Shown in pieces: positions 1,422-19,935 of a stretch of 21,623 bases of DNA (positions are counted from its first letter, which is position 1; the number at the start of each line of letters is the position of its first letter). This DNA is from Candidatus Nanopusillus sp. Its GTDB lineage: Archaea > Nanobdellota > Nanobdellia > Nanobdellales > Nanobdellaceae. Location of the stretch: positions 1 to 21,623 of the forward strand of contig JAPWTZ010000009.1 of NCBI GenBank assembly GCA_028275775.1, in the 5' to 3' direction. A program made the translations under genes and the position numbers. The notes under the pieces are model-generated. The model had not been told where the DNA came from. It was given only the letters and a program-made list of their open reading frames with translations, and ran no database searches.

Positions 1422-2630
1422 ATGAAATCTATAAGTGATAGTGTAATAGAACTTATTATTGTAATTATTATTATAATATTTGTAATAATTGTTTTCTTTA
1501 ATGTATTAAAAGGTCTTAGTTATGCTGGTAGACCAGAAGCAAAATTTGGATATGCATTAGCAGGAAGTATAAGTTTTATGGTAAATCCAGTAGCACAGGG
1601 AATATCTGATGCTGCAACAATTGCAAATGAAGTATTATTAGGAGTTGTTGCTGCTGCAACCGTTGCCGGTATATTTTCCGGAATTAAAACAAATTATGAT
1701 GAGAATGTAGAGTTTTTAGAGAGCTTAGGACTTAACGAAGAAGAGATAAAAGATATGGGTACGTCTAATCTGCTATTTAAAGATCTTGATGAGGGTGGAG
1801 GTCCTGCAATAGATGATATTGCATCTGGTGTTGGAAGTGCATATAAAACAGTATTTTTAAATCCTTTGGGTGCAGGTCTATTAGCTGGAACAATTGGTTT
1901 AGATGTTTCATCATATTTCTTAAATAATTTAGCACATGCGATGCAAGCACCAATTTTATATTATTTAGTCCCAGAAGGTGTAATAGCTGTGAATTTAAGT
2001 GATATTAGTAACTCTCAAGTAAATGAAATGCTTAATGATTTAAATGAATCATATGCAAAGAATATAGAACAATATTGTAATAATCCAACATCATCAGAAT
2101 GTCAAAATTTATATGCAACATATTTAGTTGCAAAATATTTATTTTATACATATGGAGAAACATTGGGACAGAGTGTAACTATAGCGGGTAATCATAATGA
2201 ATATGCACTATTATTATTTGATTATAACAGTAATAATAAATATAATGTTACATTAAATGATGTTTTATGTATGTTAGAAATGATGAGATATTATGGTTAT
2301 ATCCCATTAGAAGTTATGTATGGAGATAAAGTAATAGAAGAGAGTAGTAATAATGTTGCTTGTCAGGTTTTAAGTAGTATAGATCCGAATGCAATGTCAT
2401 CAAATCCTCAATATTCCCAGTTTGTATATAATAAACTATTAGTAAATTCATATAAAGTAAGCAAAAGCGGTACTCCTAATCAATTAAGTTCAACTTCAAA
2501 AAATTCCCCACCAAATGAAATTATAATTATTCCAGGTAATTTAGGATTACCAAATGGTATAATAATAGAATATACATATGAAGGAGGAAATAGAGTAATT
2601 CTATTAACATCAATTTCAGGTGAAAGTTAA
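1422..2630 (+). CDS. operon protein 1: N-terminally anchored membrane protein with Gly/Ala-rich hydrophobic segments, unknown function
   Basis: ORF track gives 1371..2630 from a TTG. The first ATG (1422) yields MKSISDSVIELIIVIIIIIFVIIVFFNVL, the same short-leader plus hydrophobic-helix layout as the downstream genes. Further hydrophobic Gly/Ala-rich stretches (VLLGVVAAATVAGIFSGI, LNPLGAGLLAGTIGL). 4 Cys, all distal to the helix. No family recognised. Confidence 0.75.
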   Translation: MKSISDSVIELIIVIIIIIFVIIVFFNVLKGLSYAGRPEAKFGYALAGSISFMVNPVAQGISDAATIANEVLLGVVAAATVAGIFSGIKTNYDENVEFLESLGLNEEEIKDMGTSNLLFKDLDEGGGPAIDDIASGVGSAYKTVFLNPLGAGLLAGTIGLDVSSYFLNNLAHAMQAPILYYLVPEGVIAVNLSDISNSQVNEMLNDLNESYAKNIEQYCNNPTSSECQNLYATYLVAKYLFYTYGETLGQSVTIAGNHNEYALLLFDYNSNNKYNVTLNDVLCMLEMMRYYGYIPLEVMYGDKVIEESSNNVACQVLSSIDPNAMSSNPQYSQFVYNKLLVNSYKVSKSGTPNQLSSTSKNSPPNEIIIIPGNLGLPNGIIIEYTYEGGNRVILLTSISGES

Positions 2631-2660
2631 TTTATAAATTGCAAAGTTTTTAGATTTATA

Positions 2661-2807
2661 ATGGAAACAGGAGAGCTTTTAAAAATAATTCTTGCATTAA
2701 TATTCATTGTATTAATATTAATACTTGTTTTTGTTGTATTCGGACCAAAATTAGGGCTAAATATAAATATATTTGCTAGATATCAATTAATAGGAGGAAA
2801 TGGATAA
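2661..2807 (+). CDS. operon protein 2: 48-aa single-helix mini-protein (not in supplied ORF track)
   Basis: Hand translation gives METGELLKIILALIFIVLILILVFVVFGPKLGLNINIFARYQLIGGNG then TAA. It overlaps the next start by 8 nt (ATGGATAA). TTTATAAAT at 2631-2639 lies ~-30 to -22 from the ATG. It has the same N-terminal architecture as its neighbours. Confidence 0.55.
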   Translation: METGELLKIILALIFIVLILILVFVVFGPKLGLNINIFARYQLIGGNG

Positions 2808-2982
2808 AAAAACACAAGTAAGTACATTTTTAATAGCAATAATATTATTTATTGTTGCATTAATATTGTTAGTAATATTTATGTATTTTTATTTTAAAGG
2901 TGGAGTAAAGTTATTCAATAGTATACCTCAAACAAATGGCACAAATGTTGTAAATAGTATAAATAGTAACAACTATGGCTGA
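2800..2982 (+). CDS. operon protein 3: 60-aa single-helix mini-protein
   Basis: MDKKTQVSTFLIAIILFIVALILLVIFMYFYF followed by a short Asn-rich tail. GGAGG at 2793-2797 lies just upstream of the ATG. The 3' end overlaps the next start by 8 nt. Confidence 0.6.
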   Translation: MDKKTQVSTFLIAIILFIVALILLVIFMYFYFKGGVKLFNSIPQTNGTNVVNSINSNNYG

Positions 2983-3133
2983 TAATGCAATAAACTTTTT
3001 AATATTTTTAATTATTGCAATAGTAATAATTGTTTTAGCAATAATATTTTATTATTATATAGTAGGTCATACTATGCAGGCAAATGTAACAAGTGTAGGA
3101 TATAAAATATTAAATCAATCTGGATTAGGATAA
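2975..3133 (+). CDS. operon protein 4: 52-aa single-helix mini-protein (not in supplied ORF track)
   Basis: Hand translation gives MADNAINFLIFLIIAIVIIVLAIIFYYYIVGHTMQANVTSVGYKILNQSGLG then TAA at 3131-3133. The start overlaps the previous stop (ATGGCTGA). The next gene starts at 3135. Confidence 0.55.
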   Translation: MADNAINFLIFLIIAIVIIVLAIIFYYYIVGHTMQANVTSVGYKILNQSGLG

Positions 3134-3134
3134 T

Positions 3135-4082
3135 ATGAAAGGAGATTTTCTTAGAATAATTTTTGATATAATAGTATTAATTGTATTGGCACTTTTAATA
3201 TACTATATTATTATGGTATTTATTGGATTAGCTATGGGAAATGAGGCAAAATATATTGGATATTTAAATACAATTGCTGATGATATAAATAGTGGAGGTA
3301 ATGGAGAAGTATTTATAAATAATTATGATTATAATTATGTTTTTGTATTAACATATAATAATGGATGGTATTTACAATTATATCATTGTCTTCCTCCAAA
3401 TTTTGTTGTAGGTCTCTTATCTGTTAAAGTAGCATATTGGAATGTTTCTACAATAAATAATGGAAATACTGTTATATTTGCACCGGCATTAGCATTTTGT
3501 AAATTAGTAAAGCAAAGATCATTAAATAATATAAATCAAATAAATATAAACATACAAGGATTAAATGATGAAGCAGGTTTATTAGTATATTCATCTAATA
3601 ATTATTTACAGATATTTCAAATTCTTATAAGTATAGAGGATTCCTTCTTTTCATTAGTATCACCAGCATGGAAATCAATGTTTCTTGCTATATTAAATGA
3701 TACAACAATAACATGTGATAGTAATGGATGTACATTTACATCAACAATTAAAGAAAATGGTAATACATATGAAGTAAATGGTAATATATATTGTGCTCCG
3801 AATCCAAATATAAATAAAAATAACAACAATTTACCATATAATCCATCAGTATGTGTAGAATTATCAGGATTTCCAAGGAATCCTCAGGTAGTTCTTAGTA
3901 ATTTTGTAGGTAGGATAATAGATTCTGCCACATTAGGTGGGCTCATTAGAGAAATCTATGGTATAGACTTTCCAATATTATATTTTGCAGGTTCTTTACC
4001 ACCAACAGTAATGGATATAGATGTAAATAGTAATGGAGGGACAGCAAATATTGATATATACATAGGAGAGACTGTTTCATAA
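3135..4082 (+). CDS. operon protein 5: N-terminally anchored Asn-rich protein with prepilin-like leader (MKG/DF...), unknown function
   Basis: 315-aa ORF. MKGDFLRIIFDIIVLIVLALLIYYIIMVFIGLAMG is followed by a sequon-rich domain. 6 Cys, all after the helix. Starts 1 nt after the previous stop. Confidence 0.8.
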   Translation: MKGDFLRIIFDIIVLIVLALLIYYIIMVFIGLAMGNEAKYIGYLNTIADDINSGGNGEVFINNYDYNYVFVLTYNNGWYLQLYHCLPPNFVVGLLSVKVAYWNVSTINNGNTVIFAPALAFCKLVKQRSLNNINQININIQGLNDEAGLLVYSSNNYLQIFQILISIEDSFFSLVSPAWKSMFLAILNDTTITCDSNGCTFTSTIKENGNTYEVNGNIYCAPNPNINKNNNNLPYNPSVCVELSGFPRNPQVVLSNFVGRIIDSATLGGLIREIYGIDFPILYFAGSLPPTVMDIDVNSNGGTANIDIYIGETVS

Positions 4083-4083
4083 T

Positions 4084-5187
4084 ATGGATATAGATGAATT
4101 ATTAGATGCAATAATAGCATCAATATTTTTAATAATTGTATCATTAATAGGAATAAATTTTCCATATATTGTTGCAAGAATATTTGGTACACATAATCCT
4201 TATTTAATATTAGAGGTTGCTGGTTTTATTACATATTCAACATCAGAACCTGGAAATATGGATGCAGCATTTTTAGTAACAAATGAACCAACTTTTTTCT
4301 ATGAATTTAGGATAATTCCTCCAATACATTCATCTTCCCTGTTCATTCCTTTATATAATAATAATGATTTTTTTGTCAGTATTGGAATATGCTATACATA
4401 TGATTTATGGCAACAACTTGCAGATGATGCATTAAATTCTTTTATAGCTGAAGTAGCTTCATATTTACCTGGACTTAAGAATTTTGGTGTTACAAAACCT
4501 TTACTGGATGTTTTAAATGATGTATCTAAAGCATTACCAGAAATTGCAAAACAGACAGCAATAAACTTTGTTGGTACATATGGATTATACACATTTCAAT
4601 CCGCATTTTTACAATATTCATATGGAAATCATAATATTTGGGGTGATATGTTTAATGCATTACAATCTTCGGTAGGACCTGCTCTATGGTCTACTGTAGA
4701 ATTTTCTATAATGCAAGTTGCAGATATGATATTGGATGAAACTTTACCACCTGGTTGGGATTTTGTAGCTGGTGTTGCATTTAATTTAGCATTTTCAGCA
4801 GCAATTACTTTAGTACAATATTGGCAAGCTACAACAAATCCATATGCGAGTTGCTATTATAATCAATTTATAAGTCAAGGTAACTTTCTTTATATATTTC
4901 CAAATGGAAAGTATACAGTATATCAACCATATTTAACATTGTCAATATATTATAATCCAAATTTTACATTTTATAATGGATGTAATGATTATTATTTATG
5001 TAATACAAGCTTTACATATATTTATAATCCAAATGATAAAAGTCAGGATAATATATTTAAACTAGATTTAGGAAATATAGATGATAAAGGTCAGCAAGTA
5101 TTTCCAGAGTTTATTATTTTATCAAAAGCGGGTTTTGAATATGGAGGCCCATATTTAAATGTATCAATATTACCTTCTAAAACATGA
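4084..5187 (+). CDS. operon protein 6: N-terminally anchored protein with a less biased, Gly/Ala/Leu-containing central domain, unknown function
   Basis: 367-aa ORF starting MDIDELLDAIIASIFLIIVSLIG. Central region (e.g. WDFVAGVAFNLAFSAAITLVQYW) is hydrophobic/amphipathic. 4 Cys. The start is 1 nt after the previous stop and the stop overlaps the next start (ATGA). Confidence 0.8.
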   Translation: MDIDELLDAIIASIFLIIVSLIGINFPYIVARIFGTHNPYLILEVAGFITYSTSEPGNMDAAFLVTNEPTFFYEFRIIPPIHSSSLFIPLYNNNDFFVSIGICYTYDLWQQLADDALNSFIAEVASYLPGLKNFGVTKPLLDVLNDVSKALPEIAKQTAINFVGTYGLYTFQSAFLQYSYGNHNIWGDMFNALQSSVGPALWSTVEFSIMQVADMILDETLPPGWDFVAGVAFNLAFSAAITLVQYWQATTNPYASCYYNQFISQGNFLYIFPNGKYTVYQPYLTLSIYYNPNFTFYNGCNDYYLCNTSFTYIYNPNDKSQDNIFKLDLGNIDDKGQQVFPEFIILSKAGFEYGGPYLNVSILPSKT

Positions 5188-6041
5188 GATCATTATCTTT
5201 AAAAGATATAATTGAATATATTGCTGCAGCGGTTGTTATAATAGTTACATTTTTCATTATAGCAATATTATATGCATTATTTAATGTTGAATCGTATTCT
5301 CAATATACATATCAACAATTTACAAATAGTTTATTAATTGATAGATTAAATTATTGTTTATATGAAAAAACTGGAAATCCATTATTATTATTTTATGCTC
5401 CAAATCCAAATATTATTAATGAATATAATAATATATATCAACAATGTTTTATGAATATATCTGGAACATTTTATTATTTTACTAATGAATCAAATCAGTC
5501 AAATGAATTTATATATACATATTTAAATTTTTCTTATGACGATTATATATATTTCTTTTTCTATAATATTAACAATATAAATTATTCATATTCTTATGAT
5601 CCATATAATCTTAGTTTTGAATATAATATAAGTGTAAATCCAAATTATGTTGCATATAATATTTATAATATAAATTATACATATGAAGATCTACCATCTT
5701 TAAACCAATTTTTAATCAATTACTTCTATAATTATAGTTTATATATATACAATGAAACAGAAAATGCTTATCAAAACTATCAAATTATAAATAATGACGA
5801 AGTATATCAAATATATCTTTCTGATTTATCTGGAGAAACTTATTATTATTATGAAACATATATTCAACCAATAACATCATATTATATTACTTTGCCAGAA
5901 TATGATAGTGGAGAACCAGTAATAGTATCTTTATATGGTGTAGGAGATCTCTATATGAATGGAATATATAATGAAACATGTGATATAATTGCTGGAGGCC
6001 AAATAAATATATCTTCATGTAAGATTACTCAAATAAAATGA
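5184..6041 (+). CDS. operon protein 7: N-terminally anchored Asn/Tyr-rich glycoprotein-like protein, unknown function
   Basis: 285-aa ORF starting MRSLSLKDIIEYIAAAVVIIVTFFIIAILYAL. I count 12 N-x-S/T sequons and 4 Cys. ATGA overlaps at both ends. Confidence 0.8.
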   Translation: MRSLSLKDIIEYIAAAVVIIVTFFIIAILYALFNVESYSQYTYQQFTNSLLIDRLNYCLYEKTGNPLLLFYAPNPNIINEYNNIYQQCFMNISGTFYYFTNESNQSNEFIYTYLNFSYDDYIYFFFYNINNINYSYSYDPYNLSFEYNISVNPNYVAYNIYNINYTYEDLPSLNQFLINYFYNYSLYIYNETENAYQNYQIINNDEVYQIYLSDLSGETYYYYETYIQPITSYYITLPEYDSGEPVIVSLYGVGDLYMNGIYNETCDIIAGGQINISSCKITQIK

Positions 6042-6523
6042 AAATACAAATTGGTTTCTTTTTATCATTTATTGCTGCAGTAATTATTGTTGTAGCTATA
6101 TTTTTTATATTTATATTTAATATTTTTTCATATGGGAATCCAACATTAAATAATATTGCAAGTTTAAATGCTGTTGGTATTGAATATAAATCTGCAAATG
6201 GTTTTTTAGATTCTTTAATTTATTTTGATAATGTAACTGTACCTGCAATAGATATATATGCAGGATTTAATAATAATAAAGCATTGGATAATTATATAAT
6301 AAATGAATTGGCAAATGAAGAATTATATTATTTAAATAATTCTGCTACAATTTTATCATTCTATTTTAATAATGATACAATTATTGGAGTATGTCCAAAT
6401 AAGGAATATATAAATTATAATGTTTATTTAAATGGTAAATCATATACATTCTATGTTTGTCCACCAACAGTACTATATAACTTTTATGTAAATTATAGTG
6501 TTATTAGTAATTATCTAACTTAA
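6038..6523 (+). CDS. operon protein 8: N-terminally anchored small Asn/Tyr-rich protein, unknown function
   Basis: 161-aa ORF starting MKIQIGFFLSFIAAVIIVVAIFFIFIF. 2 Cys (GVCPNK, YVCPPT). The start overlaps the previous stop (ATGA). Confidence 0.75.
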   Translation: MKIQIGFFLSFIAAVIIVVAIFFIFIFNIFSYGNPTLNNIASLNAVGIEYKSANGFLDSLIYFDNVTVPAIDIYAGFNNNKALDNYIINELANEELYYLNNSATILSFYFNNDTIIGVCPNKEYINYNVYLNGKSYTFYVCPPTVLYNFYVNYSVISNYLT

Positions 6524-6554
6524 AGTTAATAATTTTAAAATTTATTGAATTTAT

Positions 6555-8051
6555 ATGAAAACATCTTTAGCACCATTAGCATTATTTATAGGAGTAATAA
6601 TTTTAGTTCTCTTCGGTATATTTTATTTAAATTCTCAGATTCAGCTTGCAACGCAATCTTTAAGATATTTAAGTGAAGATTATATTGCATATCAGGGATT
6701 TTTATATATATTATTTGTTTATATTCCATTTGATATTAGATATAATTTATTAAATAATCTTTTTACAAATATTTTTTCAGGATCTACATATAATATAAAT
6801 TATGTATTTGGAAATAATGTTCCAGATTATTATTCTCAATGCGAAATTCCTTTTTTATTTAATTTAGAAAATATAGAAAATAATGGAAATAATTATAATA
6901 TAATTTATTCATTATGTGTTCCAATAATTCCTTTAAATAATATAAATAATTATCAAAATATTAAAAATATTCTTTATAATATTGGAAATACTTTAAATCA
7001 AGATTTAGAAGAAGAAATTAGATATTTAAATACAAATTTAAATTTTAAACATGCAAATTTTTCATATCAAGATTTTTATTATGATGATAAATATAATTTT
7101 GTATTATCAAATCCTCAATATTCTTTCTTTGTACAAAATAAATATGAAAGAAGTTTATCTTTTCCTCAATTAAATAATCAAATATATTATTCAATATATC
7201 CTTTTTTATTATATTATAATGAATTAATTGATTATTTATACAATCAAACATTCCAATTTATATATTATAATTTAACAAATCAATCAAATTATATATATTT
7301 ATATCAAAATTCATATTCTAATGAAACAATTGGAGATAATTTATACTTAAATTTTTCATTTAATAATACATATTATTATGTTTTAGATTTATATACATCT
7401 CAACTTTTACCATTTGAATATCCAAATATTACAAATGTAACAATTGTAATACCATGTGAATCAATTGGACAGATTGTAAATAATCAATGTATAGTAAATG
7501 ATACATATAGTGAATATATGTATACATGTTTATATACGAACGTAAATTCTTTTCTATCTTCTTTTAATTATCAAATATTAAATGAAACAAATATATTCAA
7601 TGGATCTTGGTATAATGTAACTGGTGTAAATATTATTAATGAAAAAAATGTAAAAGTTGATAGAAATTTTGTAGAAAAAATCTTAGAAAATTATGCATAT
7701 TATACTGATGGATATTATCCAGCTTTAATACCTTTAGATATTCAGATAAATTATAATAATGTAAGTTGCTCTATAAATAATGAAACATTGCAATTTGGGC
7801 CATATAAAACTTACTCTGACTGTTTAAATTCACAAAATTTATTGGAAAATTATTTATCAAATTCATGTACAATTGAATCTGGATGTTATAATGAAAATAA
7901 GATGTTTTATTTTAATGCTACATGTATTGTTCCAGAAACAAATATAAACAATCAATTTACATACAATTATTATTTATATGAATTTGTAGAAATAAATAAT
8001 GAAACAATGAATAATTATTGTGATAATTCATATTGTTATATAATAGGATAG
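6555..8051 (+). CDS. operon protein 9: N-terminally anchored large Asn/Tyr-rich, Cys-containing glycoprotein-like protein, unknown function
   Basis: 498-aa ORF starting MKTSLAPLALFIGVIILVLFGIFYL. Very dense N-x-S/T sequons. 12 Cys, 10 of them in the C-terminal ~210 residues, ending ...NYCDNSYCYIIG. The 3' end overlaps convergent taw3 by 24 nt. Confidence 0.8.
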   Translation: MKTSLAPLALFIGVIILVLFGIFYLNSQIQLATQSLRYLSEDYIAYQGFLYILFVYIPFDIRYNLLNNLFTNIFSGSTYNINYVFGNNVPDYYSQCEIPFLFNLENIENNGNNYNIIYSLCVPIIPLNNINNYQNIKNILYNIGNTLNQDLEEEIRYLNTNLNFKHANFSYQDFYYDDKYNFVLSNPQYSFFVQNKYERSLSFPQLNNQIYYSIYPFLLYYNELIDYLYNQTFQFIYYNLTNQSNYIYLYQNSYSNETIGDNLYLNFSFNNTYYYVLDLYTSQLLPFEYPNITNVTIVIPCESIGQIVNNQCIVNDTYSEYMYTCLYTNVNSFLSSFNYQILNETNIFNGSWYNVTGVNIINEKNVKVDRNFVEKILENYAYYTDGYYPALIPLDIQINYNNVSCSINNETLQFGPYKTYSDCLNSQNLLENYLSNSCTIESGCYNENKMFYFNATCIVPETNINNQFTYNYYLYEFVEINNETMNNYCDNSYCYIIG

Positions 8052-8629: not shown

Positions 8630-9103
8630 ATGGATAGAGAAAAAATAATATTAAATATATTATTTCTTGTATTTTCTATACCAGTAATTTACCTAATATA
8701 TTATTCATATTCAACATATTTTTCTGGAAATAAAATGGTAAATCCTGAAAATGTATATAATTTATATATATCAAATTTTAGTGTAAGTGGAAATTATTTT
8801 TCATTTAATGTAAATAATCCAAATAATTATTCTGTTGAAATATATTTTTCATATTTAGCATTAAAAAATTCATATCAAACATCATCAATAATAACTTCTG
8901 GAAGCTTTTTACAAAATATATATATAATACAACCAGAAAAACATATTACATTACAATATAATTTTGAATTAGATGATCAAACAAGATTAACAATTATTCA
9001 ATGGGAAAAGCTTGGTGGAATTCTATATTTAACATTATATTATTCATCTATAGGAAATAATTCTATTAGTGGAATAATAAATTATCAAATAGAAAAAAGC
9101 TAG
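8630..9103 (+). CDS. N-terminally anchored small protein, LEA_2/WHy-like beta-sandwich candidate
   Basis: 157 aa. The helix MDREKIILNILFLVFSIPVIYLIYY is followed by YISNFSVSGNYFSFNVNNPNNYSVEIYFSYLAL, which resembles the LEA_2 (NDR1/HIN1-like) strand-NPN-strand motif. The start is 5 nt from the divergent taw3 start. Confidence 0.6.
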   Translation: MDREKIILNILFLVFSIPVIYLIYYSYSTYFSGNKMVNPENVYNLYISNFSVSGNYFSFNVNNPNNYSVEIYFSYLALKNSYQTSSIITSGSFLQNIYIIQPEKHITLQYNFELDDQTRLTIIQWEKLGGILYLTLYYSSIGNNSISGIINYQIEKS

Positions 9104-17658: not shown

Positions 17659-19935
17659 ATGAATAAATTAAAATTGTTTTTCTTATTTATTTTAATATTT
17701 AATCTTTTTAATATATATTCTCAAAATTATTCACCAACATTATTTAATATTCCAGTAAGTTCTATAAATATAAATCAATTAAATCTATATAATCTTGGAC
17801 AGGGATCTTATGGTGATTTTTATATTTTATATTCCTCATATTACTTTTCTTATCCAATAAATTCATCAAATCAATATTTAAATATATATTTTAATTCATC
17901 AATTCCTTTATCTTTTTATATAATGAATCAACAAAATTATCAAAATTTTCAAAATGGTAGTAATTTTACATCAATTTATCAAGCATATACAAATTATATA
18001 AATCAAAGTATATTTTTATCTTCAGGAAATTATTATATAGTAATTTATAACAATAATACACAAAATGCATATTATTATTTTATATATAGTTTAACAAATC
18101 AGCCTGAAAATAATATTTATTCTCCAATAGGAGTTTCTGATTATGGTATATATATTAGCAATGGAAATATTTATGGATATAATATTACAACAAATGAAGT
18201 TATTGGGGAAGTTTATTTAAATAGTTTTAGTTCATATGTTGATCCTTTATGTTCTAATAATTTTATAGGAGAGAATTCAGGTTCTATACAATTAAATGCT
18301 ATTTTAGAATTAAGTAATGGTCAATATTATTGGTTACAAAATGTTTTATTAATAAATAATACTGGCGGATATTATGAATTTGCTGATAATGTATGGAATT
18401 TTACATCTTCAAACTCTTATTTATCAAATAATTTAATTGAAGGAAATGGAATAGTAAGTAATTATGATAATAAATATTTTTATGTATATGAAACAAACTA
18501 TTCTAATTTACAATATCCATTAAATGTATATTTAATAATTAATATTACTCAAAATAATTCTTATCCAGAAATACAATTTGGATATAGTTTTGATGGACAA
18601 AATATAAATTGGTACGATAATGTTACATTATTAATTCCATCAAATGGCAATATAGTTATTTCTCCATATTTTACAGGTTCTGATAATATAGAAGATTTAG
18701 AATTGGTTATTGGGGGACCAGGATATGGAACATGTATAGATATAAACAATATTGGTGGTTATTTGGGTTTATATTATTTATATAACAATCAATATATTAC
18801 TCCAGATCCTTCAATATTTAATTATGGTTTTAATACAGCAGAATATTCTTCAAATATTAATGAAAATATAATATCACAAGGATTTGTAAATTTATCTGAA
18901 GGTCCTTTTTATCCAGAATATTTGGGAAATACATATACTTTAAATTATAATATATCAGTTTATTATTCTTTCAATAATTCATATATAAATTATCAATATC
19001 CATTTGGGACAGTTTTTAATATAAGTATCCCAATATATATTTATCAAAATAATACATTATATTTACTAAATAATTTAACAATAAATGGAGAAAATTATAA
19101 TATTAATTATTCACAACAATATGTAAACATAAGTTTGTTAGTAAATAATAATTATAATATTTCTACAAACTATACAGAATATTATTTAGTTATTATAGAT
19201 GATAATATTGGAATAAATTTCTCAATTTCTGGAAATTATCTAAATGAAACATATTATAATAATACATATTCTTTTTATGCAAATAATTTATTGAATATTT
19301 ATTTAAATCAAACATATAATTTTGGAAATTATCAATATTATTGTCCAAATAATATAACATTAAATATAAATAACTCAGAAACTATTAATCTATCCAATTA
19401 TTGTTATTTACAATATCAATTAAATATATCTTTCCCATTTAATTATACAATAAACAATAATACATATTCTGGAAATAATAGTTTTTATATAAATGCAAAT
19501 AGCAATGTATCTATATTAATAAATCCAATTAATTATATAAATAATCAGGAAAGATTATATTGCAATATAACAAATATAACAATAAACATAACTTATCCAA
19601 TGAATGTAGATTTATCTAATTATTGTATATATCAATATTTAGTTACATTTTATACTCCTTTTTTAGTAAATGTTTCTATAAATAATTATATAAATATTTA
19701 TGGAAATACTTCTATCTTTTTAAATAATGGAACTATGATAAATATTTTGCCTTCAGAATATATTTATCCAGGATTCTTTTATAATACAATTTATTATGAA
19801 AATGGATATAATTATATTGTAAATCAGCCTTTAAATATTGTTATACAATTCAATAAAAAAATTCAATATAATTATTTAAATATTGGATTATTAATTGGAG
19901 GAATAGTTGGAGTAATAGTATTTGTTTTATATTGA
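17659..19935 (+). CDS. thermopsin-family (peptidase A5-like) surface protein with signal peptide, C-terminal repeat modules and C-terminal membrane anchor
   Basis: 758 aa with signal-like MNKLKLFFLFILIFNLFNIYSQ. The core SPIGVSDYGIY ... GSIQLNAILELSNGQYYWLQNVLLINNTGGYYEFADNVWNFTS matches the conserved thermopsin block (P.G.aDyG ... QLN ... YW.Q.V ... dN.WN). Two ~73-aa Cys-pair modules at aa ~561-705. Terminal helix LLIGGIVGVIVFVLY. Confidence 0.7.
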   Translation: MNKLKLFFLFILIFNLFNIYSQNYSPTLFNIPVSSININQLNLYNLGQGSYGDFYILYSSYYFSYPINSSNQYLNIYFNSSIPLSFYIMNQQNYQNFQNGSNFTSIYQAYTNYINQSIFLSSGNYYIVIYNNNTQNAYYYFIYSLTNQPENNIYSPIGVSDYGIYISNGNIYGYNITTNEVIGEVYLNSFSSYVDPLCSNNFIGENSGSIQLNAILELSNGQYYWLQNVLLINNTGGYYEFADNVWNFTSSNSYLSNNLIEGNGIVSNYDNKYFYVYETNYSNLQYPLNVYLIINITQNNSYPEIQFGYSFDGQNINWYDNVTLLIPSNGNIVISPYFTGSDNIEDLELVIGGPGYGTCIDINNIGGYLGLYYLYNNQYITPDPSIFNYGFNTAEYSSNINENIISQGFVNLSEGPFYPEYLGNTYTLNYNISVYYSFNNSYINYQYPFGTVFNISIPIYIYQNNTLYLLNNLTINGENYNINYSQQYVNISLLVNNNYNISTNYTEYYLVIIDDNIGINFSISGNYLNETYYNNTYSFYANNLLNIYLNQTYNFGNYQYYCPNNITLNINNSETINLSNYCYLQYQLNISFPFNYTINNNTYSGNNSFYINANSNVSILINPINYINNQERLYCNITNITINITYPMNVDLSNYCIYQYLVTFYTPFLVNVSINNYINIYGNTSIFLNNGTMINILPSEYIYPGFFYNTIYYENGYNYIVNQPLNIVIQFNKKIQYNYLNIGLLIGGIVGVIVFVLY

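Follow-up and report, generated by a model that had tools for sequence, protein, structure and literature searches.

Are the products of nine tightly coupled genes in a tiny symbiotic nanoarchaeon from hot springs processed in the manner of type IV prepilins, or are they simply held in the membrane by N-terminal anchors? The genes lie at positions 1422–8051 of a stretch of 21,623 nucleotides (hereafter the window), which is an entire contig (C29) of a Nanopusillus/Nanobsidianus-type nanoarchaeon with a genome of 536 kb, 23% G+C and ~80% completeness. All nine are on the plus strand and are separated by overlaps of 8, 8, 4 and 4 nucleotides, two gaps of 1 nucleotide and two of ~30 nucleotides. 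These translationally coupled genes are a family-specific operon, whose gene order is shared by 11/11 genomes within the genus and by 14/17 within the family; searches of two further families in the order did not find it. A first-pass annotation, made from this DNA alone, had suggested that some of the products may be processed pilin-like subunits and that others may be simple signal anchors.

The reading favoured here with modest confidence, from sequence comparison, is that most of the operon products would be substrates of a divergent PibD/FlaK-like peptidase and part of an unusually large set of pilin-like surface proteins in this genome. The products of genes 1, 3, 4, 5, 7, 8 and 9 probably carry class III (type IV prepilin-like) signal peptides, of 2–5 residues in the window. 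In these leaders, a basic residue at position -2 and a small residue at -1 (or Gln at +1) would stand directly ahead of a hydrophobic helix of ~20 residues. The reading draws on this motif and its conservation, on the presence in the genome of peptidase and filament machinery genes, and on the same leaders found on an archaellin and on Pilin_N-like proteins close to the Pfam cut-off; from these we infer cleavage and assembly, as well as any function in contact with the host. The nine genes are listed below, with a slash marking each proposed cleavage site.

Gene 1, 1422..2630, plus strand: 402 residues; N-terminus MKSISDSVIELIIV; proposed leader MKS/ISDS; best-supported prepilin-type junction.
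Gene 2, 2661..2807, plus strand: single-helix mini-protein of 48 residues; acidic start METGE; not prepilin-like by the rule of Lys or Arg ahead of the helix.
Gene 3, 2800..2982, plus strand: mini-protein of 60 residues; proposed leader MDKKT/QVSTF; ~55 residues left after the predicted cut.
Gene 4, 2975..3133, plus strand: mini-protein of 52 residues; start MADN; proposed junction MA/DNAINF, with the basic residue missing in the window.
Gene 5, 3135..4082, plus strand: 315 residues; N-terminus MKGDFLRIIFDIIV; proposed leader MKG/DFLR; conserved Asp or Glu within the helix (IIFDII).
Gene 6, 4084..5187, plus strand: 367 residues; acidic start MDIDELLD; not prepilin-like.
Gene 7, 5184..6041, plus strand: 285 residues; N-terminus MRSLSLKDIIEYIAAAVV; proposed leader MRS/LSLKD; canonical -2 and -1; invariant Asp at +5; sequon-rich ectodomain.
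Gene 8, 6038..6523, plus strand: 161 residues; N-terminus MKIQIGFFLSFIAAV; proposed junction MKI/QIGFFLS; Gln at +1, non-canonical -1.
Gene 9, 6555..8051, plus strand: 498 residues; N-terminus MKTSLAPLALFIGV; proposed leader MKT/SLAPL; large Cys-rich and sequon-rich ectodomain.

The N-termini quoted in the first-pass annotation (those at 1422, 3135, 5184, 6038 and 6555, together with the acidic starts METGE, MDKK, MADN and MDIDE) were all exact. Each of the nine products has a single strongly hydrophobic 19-residue span that starts at residue 5–12, with a mean Kyte-Doolittle value of 2.7–3.8. Type IV prepilins are processed ahead of a hydrophobic domain and need Gly, Ala or Ser at -1; archaeal ones further need charge at -2 (PMC4371748). 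This rule is satisfied in the window by genes 1 (MKS/I), 5 (MKG/D) and 7 (MRS/L). The window's K-T/ junctions in genes 3 and 9 are K-G/, R-S/ or R-G/ in orthologues; similarly, gene 8 has K-I/Q in the window and K-S/Q in one orthologue. Genes 2 and 6 do not follow the rule, either in the window or in orthologues.

Orthologues were compared through aligned leaders from 13 genomes, and all counts are of distinct variants. For genes 1, 3, 7 and 9, the 31 variants, which are not independent trials since orthologues share kinship, have Lys or Arg at -2 in every case and Gly, Ala, Ser or Thr at -1 in 30, with leaders of 3–7 residues. These four small residues together make up ~18% of the proteome. 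The residue at -1 has switched among them several times without leaving the class, as the following variants illustrate.

Gene 1 junctions: MKS/IS, MKKG/IS, MKRA/VS, MRKKG/QE, MKKG/VS, MKKA/ST and MKKRS/VS.
Gene 3 junctions: MDKKT/Q, MDKRT/Q, MYHKRS/Q, MAYHKG/Q and MFRKRS/D.
Gene 7 leaders: MRS, MRA, MKG, MMRG and MKKS, ahead of [LFI][SG]x[KST]D.
Gene 9 leaders: MKT, MRKRG, MLSKLRS and MIKS, ahead of SLA[PS]L.
Gene 8 leaders: MKI, MRI, MKF, MMKN and MVSKKS, ahead of invariant QIGFFLS.
Gene 4 junctions: MA/D and MEA/D in close relatives; MKS/D, MRRS/E and MRL/D in more distant species.
Gene 2 N-termini: METG, MDTG, MN, MDN, MEFG and MEFS; Lys or Arg never ahead of the helix in any orthologue.

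The remaining products follow the motif to different degrees. The N-terminus of gene 5 is Met, one or two basic residues (Lys or Arg) and then Gly, Ser, Ala or Thr in 10/11 variants, the exception being MKN. In gene 4, -1 is Ala or Ser in 7/8 variants. The earlier view that products with acidic leaders fit the motif poorly stands for METGE (gene 2) and MDIDE (gene 6). It does not stand for MDKK (gene 3), which fits as MDKKT/Q, with orthologues such as MAYHKG/Q and MYHKRS/Q. MADN (gene 4) is a poor fit only in that the basic residue is missing in the window; the basic leader of more distant species indicates that this residue was lost in the window's subclade. For gene 8, the first-pass annotation had placed the cut after Gly6 (MKIQIG). 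Insertions and deletions in the leader are all located before Gln4, at which the conserved block starts (MKI/Q, MMKN/Q, MVSKKS/QIGFFLS), and this makes a cut after Gly6 the less likely one.

A wider search with the gene 1 profile, against 1.84 billion representative proteins, returned only 27 relatives. All 15 of the divergent homologues that were inspected have Lys or Arg followed by Gly, Ala, Ser or Thr ahead of the helix, with leaders of 3–6 residues. The contrast case, limited to one comparison, is the N-anchored neighbour at 8630–9103, which keeps EKI/I in all orthologues. In addition, the first 30 residues of most operon proteins share an identity of 0.4–0.7, as against 0.2–0.3 for the rest, a figure that hydrophobic composition inflates. 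The N-terminal 30–60 residues are the best-conserved part in most of these proteins, which fits pilins. Elsewhere in the gene 1 family, residues ~230–262 form a very strongly conserved block, TYL(I/V)AKYLxYTxGETLGQSVxIAGxHxEY, and four Cys are also conserved; no known domain was detected in the family. A gene 1 homologue was also considered in a genome of 490,885 bp. It was set aside, as the match was weak, the protein had no N-terminal helix and no operon surrounded it; the profile search then gave none.

An acidic residue at +5 of the mature pilin is nearly universal in bacteria. In archaea, it occurs in only some pilins (PMC4371748). The acidic residues that had been pointed out early in the helices are largely conserved in genes 2, 5, 6 and 7, whereas the Glu of gene 1 is replaced by Lys, Arg or Ser in orthologues. 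Every gene 5 orthologue has an acidic residue, lying between +8 and +13. Gene 7 alone has one at a constant +5, an Asp that is invariant in 7 orthologues down to 21% identity. The parallel drawn earlier with bacterial Glu at +5 can therefore be kept for gene 7, where the residue is Asp, and not for the other members.

Genes 2 and 6 stand apart. Lys or Arg precedes the helix in 0/11 variants of gene 6, and the N-termini of both proteins have a net negative charge. Both begin with an acidic cap that leads into E-L-L-x-(x)-I-I-x-(A/S)-x-I-F, and both have Lys or Arg after the helix. By the positive-inside rule, these acidic N-termini and the basic residues after the helix make a different orientation, or no processing, more likely, and they suggest that genes 2 and 6 are oriented opposite to the other seven products. 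In gene 6, Arg32 follows the helix, and the three sequons are all confined to the C-terminal 75 residues. They come after a hydrophobic stretch (~222–245) that was spotted by eye and is below the threshold of the hydrophobicity scan. Gene 6 is probably a differently oriented or uncleaved membrane component. A possible D-A/I-I-A-S site in gene 6 was rejected, being present in only about half of the lineages. The idea that genes 2 and 6 encode leaderless pilins, with Glu5 numbered from Met1 on the model of mature bacterial pilins, was also rejected because the acidic residue moves to position 3, 4 or 5, or disappears, in orthologues.

The same leaders are found on filament proteins encoded elsewhere in the genome. 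An archaellin, MVRA/QFGLSTLIILIA (MVRA/QFGLST), exceeds the PF01917 cut-off with 36 bits. Two Pilin_N-like proteins, MKS/ISPIIAS and MKIKA/VSPLIAT, match PF07790 at 23–24 bits, just under the 25.2-bit cut-off. Among the genome's genes, six match T2SSE strongly and six match T2SSF above the Pfam cut-off, some of them perhaps on duplicate contigs; small proteins encoded beside such genes begin with MKT/QLLLE and MKS/IHIY (C24), MKS/QSWIE (C26) and MKL/QTQL (C2). Genome-wide, Ser is at position 3 in 14/41 proteins that start with Met and Lys or Arg and have an N-terminal helix, and in 3/89 other proteins with such a start; Gln is at position 4 in 14/41 and 0/89 respectively. Gln stands directly after the junction in 20/77 proteins with an N-terminal helix, while Gln makes up 2.2% of the proteome. 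Altogether, ~41 of 644 open reading frames (~6%) have [KR][GAS]/, [KR]T/ or [KR]x/Q ahead of an N-terminal helix, a small number of them being obvious false positives. Their leaders have 3–9 residues, three being commonest, and they are spread over contigs C2, C5, C12, C13, C17, C24, C26, C37 and others. Gene 8 belongs to the genome-wide [KR]x/Q class, in which -1 is relaxed (Asn, Leu, Ile, Thr or Ser). Clusters of pilin-like genes comparable to the operon are also seen on other contigs, and the repertoire of prepilin-like proteins looks very large for so small a genome.

Processing would need an enzyme, and the first-pass annotation had proposed a search for a prepilin peptidase gene elsewhere in the genome. 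An A24 homologue with both catalytic Asp residues was found on C26 (~59135–60118, minus strand), so the absence of a peptidase, which that annotation would have taken as telling against processing, does not hold. This candidate is a membrane protein of 327 residues that matches PF01478 at 20.9–24.4 bits over model positions 4–102 of 104; the cut-off is 26.5 bits. One such homologue is present per genome throughout the genus; the orthologue in Candidatus Nanopusillus acidilobi is encoded at ~367–368 kb of CP010514.1. In other genera, family members reach 41 and 27 bits and clear the cut-off; the range for most genomes of the class is 30–63 bits. In phmmer comparisons, the C26 protein gave 1e-57 and 3e-38 with the cut-off-passing members of the family and ~1e-13 with A24 proteins at the level of the class. 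Its catalytic Asp22, in SYQD22IKYK, is aligned with SYxDLKTRE, and its Asp79, in AIGD79L, with GGGDVK of the class-level relatives. The candidate thus has A-I-G-D where these relatives have G-G-D. Its C-terminal LVEGDW block (Arc_PepC-like) matches the LTEGDW of relatives. An NCBIfam scan and a PDB sequence search with the C26 protein gave no match, and the published gene table of Candidatus Nanopusillus acidilobi has no 'prepilin' entry, whereas that of its host has one.

In a survey of type IV pili in archaea from 2016, two nanoarchaea were reported to have no A24 peptidase, and the pilins belonging to one ATPase clade could not be identified in nanoarchaeal genomes (PMC4858521). The present comparison suggests that A24 peptidase and pilin-like proteins both exist in the Nanopusillus group and escape standard models. 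Engineered leaders of 3 and 4 residues are cut by PibD, whereas FlaK needs five (PMC4187195). Leaders of three residues would thus be feasible for a PibD-like enzyme.

The known systems that come closest are archaeal. The PibD substrates of Sulfolobales (UpsA/B, AapA/B and the sugar-binding proteins of the bindosome) resemble the operon proteins in having a short basic leader with Lys or Arg at -2 and Gly, Ala or Ser at -1. Large size and diversity are shared as well, and many of these substrates have genes that lie apart from motor genes. Published processing sites, known or predicted, include KAIS and KGIS (UpsA/B), RALS (AapA/B), KGQI (EpdE), and DAVS or RAVS (PilA) (PMC4371748). Among the orthologues, the junction tetrads K-G/I-S and R-A/I-S occur in gene 1, R-A/L-S in gene 7 and K-G/Q-I in one gene 3 orthologue. 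The tetrads K-G/I-S and R-A/L-S of the gene 1 and gene 7 families are thus the Sulfolobus sites of UpsB and AapA/B respectively. The operon proteins differ from the Sulfolobales substrates in having no sequence or family similarity to them beyond the junction, in leaders that are mostly of 3 residues and in the Thr, Ile or Asn found at -1 in some members.

The Epd pilus of Methanococcus maripaludis (EpdA-E, processed with EppA) consists of a major pilin of ~6 kDa and several minor pilins. Like the operon, its genes are clustered, and they include very small subunits dominated by a helix. The Gln at +1 in genes 3 and 8 and ~20 other proteins recalls the Gln at +1 that is required by EppA (PMC4371748), and the K-G/Q-I of the gene 3 orthologue equals the EpdE site. 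In contrast to Epd, the operon has no match to the PF04021/DUF361 model, no conserved Glu at +5, and no motor or platform genes at the locus. The candidate peptidase also resembles the FlaK/PibD type with an Arc_PepC-like block and not the larger EppA, as judged by length and domain hints only.

In bacterial minor-pilin and pseudopilin operons (FimU-PilVWXE with PilY1; GspGHIJK), the junction motif is G/F. These operons also encode several co-translated prepilin-like proteins of varied sizes, including a large candidate tip protein, and they too lie apart from motor genes; gene 7 shares their acidic residue at +5. The domains are unrelated, however, and the operon leaders have the archaeal-type basic residue at -2. 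Most operon members lack Glu at +5, and two have no basic leader.

The distribution of sequons bears on the orientation of the larger products. Gene 7 has 12 sequons (4.2 per 100 residues), compared with 4.7 +/- 1.9 in shuffles of its own composition, an excess of 3.8 standard deviations. Similarly, gene 9 has 17 (3.4 per 100 residues), compared with 9.3 +/- 2.7, or 2.9 standard deviations above, and 12 Cys. The genome mean is 0.79 per 100 residues. This enrichment supports an N-in, C-out orientation, with the bulk of both proteins outside the cell, and gene 9 is a candidate adhesin or tip subunit. The tails of genes 3 and 4 contain one and two sequons respectively. Gene 3 overlaps each of its neighbours, genes 2 and 4, by 8 nucleotides. 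The products of genes 2, 3 and 4 are weakly similar helix-only mini-proteins, and two of the three seem to be unannotated in N. acidilobi, whose table has a single gene between the counterparts of genes 1 and 5. Apart from this weak similarity, no paralogues of the nine genes were found in the genome.

Several results weigh against prepilin processing of the operon products. No pilin family was found in Pfam and NCBIfam scans of the nine products, with Pfam also run on ten orthologues; the operon products gave weak matches to transmembrane-type families only. PF07790, PF04021 and PF01917 had no match at E <= 1 to the nine products and ten orthologues, and the same models score other proteins of the genome. 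A FlaFind-style pattern, which is not the original program, selects two proteins genome-wide and almost none of the nine; it was dropped as a classifier for this lineage because it missed the Pfam-supported archaellin. The AlphaFold2 (AF2) models of genes 7 and 8 are too poor for fold assignment. That of gene 7 has a predicted local distance difference test score (pLDDT) of 63 and a predicted template modelling score (pTM) of 0.47, with a confident helix at 6–34 and a second helix at 40–63, followed by mixed helix and beta strands. In that of gene 8 (pLDDT 43), only the N-terminal helix (residues 2–31) is confident. Foldseek searches of the PDB with these low-confidence models found nothing at E < 0.5, the best gene 7 match being at E = 0.5. 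At the junction itself, -1 is non-canonical in genes 3 and 9 (Thr) and gene 8 (Ile) of the window, and gene 4 has no basic residue. In gene 1, residues 70–88 form a second segment, Gly/Ala-rich and of moderate hydrophobicity, that is found in the family at 65–89 and is sometimes joined by a third, so gene 1 may not encode a classic filament subunit; its N. acidilobi counterpart is listed with one transmembrane domain in the published table. No motor or platform gene adjoins the operon in three complete genomes, in which the nearest strong T2SSE/T2SSF matches are ~45–170 kb away. Stand-alone pilin genes are common in archaea (PMC4858521). Finally, the N. acidilobi counterparts of the operon (Nps_00225–00255, mapped via gene order and without arCOG assignment) have no entry in the published proteome table. 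The archaellin genes have no proteome entry either, so membrane glycoproteins seem to be poorly sampled in that table.

Much of this could also be expected if the proteins were plain uncleaved N-terminal signal anchors (N-in, C-out) of a membrane-tethered surface complex unrelated to type IV filaments, with the MK and MR starts owed to the positive-inside rule and AT-rich second codons. This explanation, the chief alternative, is judged somewhat unlikely, although a short basic tail before a conserved anchor helix looks the same as a leader. It would account for the lack of linkage to ATPase, platform or peptidase genes, for the missing pilin family match and the extra hydrophobic segments of gene 1, for genes 2, 4 and 6 having no basic leader in the window, and for the failure of AF2 and Foldseek to yield a fold for genes 7 and 8. 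Starts of Met and Lys or Arg are also common in this genome among soluble proteins (89/519). Plain anchors, however, give no reason for Gly, Ala, Ser or Thr after the last Lys or Arg in 30 of 31 variants and in all 15 distant gene 1 homologues while the leaders themselves are remodelled, nor for a conserved block that starts exactly at the junction. Soluble proteins with the same starts show neither Ser3 nor Gln4, the anchor protein at 8630–9103 has no small residue, and the same leaders occur on the archaellin and the near-cut-off Pilin_N-like proteins. Ordinary Sec signal peptides, cut by signal peptidase I after the hydrophobic stretch to release soluble or S-layer-associated proteins, are very improbable. 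The N. acidilobi table does mark the gene 8 counterpart and an upstream glycoprotein gene as signal-peptide positive, and the product of 86–1330 in the window has a classic short hydrophobic region followed by AQT. In the operon products, by contrast, the hydrophobic stretches are continuous over ~20 residues or more, and inspection by eye found no conserved A-x-A-like region after them. The N-terminal stretch is the best-conserved part of most of the proteins, which is unexpected for a discarded peptide, and the three mini-proteins would be almost wholly removed.

An explanation closer to the favoured one is that the A24 peptidase cuts these proteins but that they form no filament, being membrane-resident or part of a bindosome-like surface layer, in the manner of the Sulfolobus sugar-binding proteins that PibD processes. 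In their size and variety the ectodomains (285–498 residues) resemble non-pilin PibD substrates (PMC4371748), as do the possible extra membrane segments of gene 1, and no cognate motor gene is found at the locus. Three helix-only mini-proteins of ~50 residues and seven co-translated leader-bearing proteins look more like a set of pilins and minor pilins, however, and the Pfam and NCBIfam scans of the nine products detected no substrate-binding domain. On these grounds a surface layer without filaments is considered unlikely.

Under the favoured reading, that most operon products are substrates of a PibD/FlaK-like peptidase, the helix would insert in the membrane with the N-terminus inside. The leader would then be removed by the divergent PibD/FlaK-type A24 aspartic peptidase on C26, through Asp22 and the Asp79 of A-I-G-D. 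A type IV filament ATPase/platform pair encoded elsewhere in the genome may take over the processed subunits and assemble them on the cell surface as a set of minor pilins, adhesins or short-filament parts. The three ~50-residue proteins could serve as helix-only core subunits and the glycosylated gene 7–9 products as the exposed parts, while genes 2 and 6 would probably be uncleaved membrane partners. A more specific version, which is regarded as quite unlikely, is that the operon encodes a self-contained, Nanopusillaceae-specific filament or pseudopilus for host contact. Its shaft would be made of processed mini-pilins of ~45–55 residues (genes 3, 4 and perhaps 2), capped by the glycosylated, Cys-rich gene 7–9 products. 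An ATPase/platform pair without a pilin-like neighbour would act as assembler, and the A-I-G-D peptidase would tolerate 3-residue leaders and a non-canonical -1 before Gln. If this were true, hardly any known subunit of a type IV filament would be smaller than these mini-pilins.

Several features of the surroundings may be added. A TATA-like sequence, TTATAAAA, lies at ~1383–1390, ahead of gene 1, and its position would place the transcript start a few bases 5' of the ATG at 1422. The housekeeping genes in the window are archaeal (DnaG-type primase, FBP aldolase/phosphatase, alanyl-tRNA synthetase and Taw3). Related records retrieved by similarity are those of Candidatus Nanobsidianus stetteri, Candidatus Nanopusillus acidilobi 7A (CP010514.1), Nanopusillus sp., a Nanopusillaceae archaeon and Nanoarchaeota archaeon YN1. 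In complete relatives, a further leader-bearing pair is encoded a few kb upstream of the operon (N. acidilobi locus 4864–7592 and two equivalents). It consists of a 62-residue protein (MKNS/IAIDM) and a protein of ~780–850 residues (MRGS/IFDD, MKT/QFGS, MKS/DVLN), and in the present assembly it would sit on a different contig. Within the window, 17659–19935 encodes a sequon-rich protein of 758 residues with a predicted signal peptide and C-terminal anchor; its gene-order counterpart is Nps_00325, annotated as 'Thermopsin-like protease'.

As read here, the family-specific operon proteins join the known class III signal peptide proteins and are not a new kind of system. The N. acidilobi paper named conserved predicted membrane proteins as the place to look for host interaction (PMC4935971). 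The operon proteins bear on how nanoarchaea attach to and exploit their hosts. The ~40 short-leader proteins, including seven from a conserved unannotated operon, together with the candidate enzyme provide a concrete set for the cultivable N. acidilobi-Acidilobus system.

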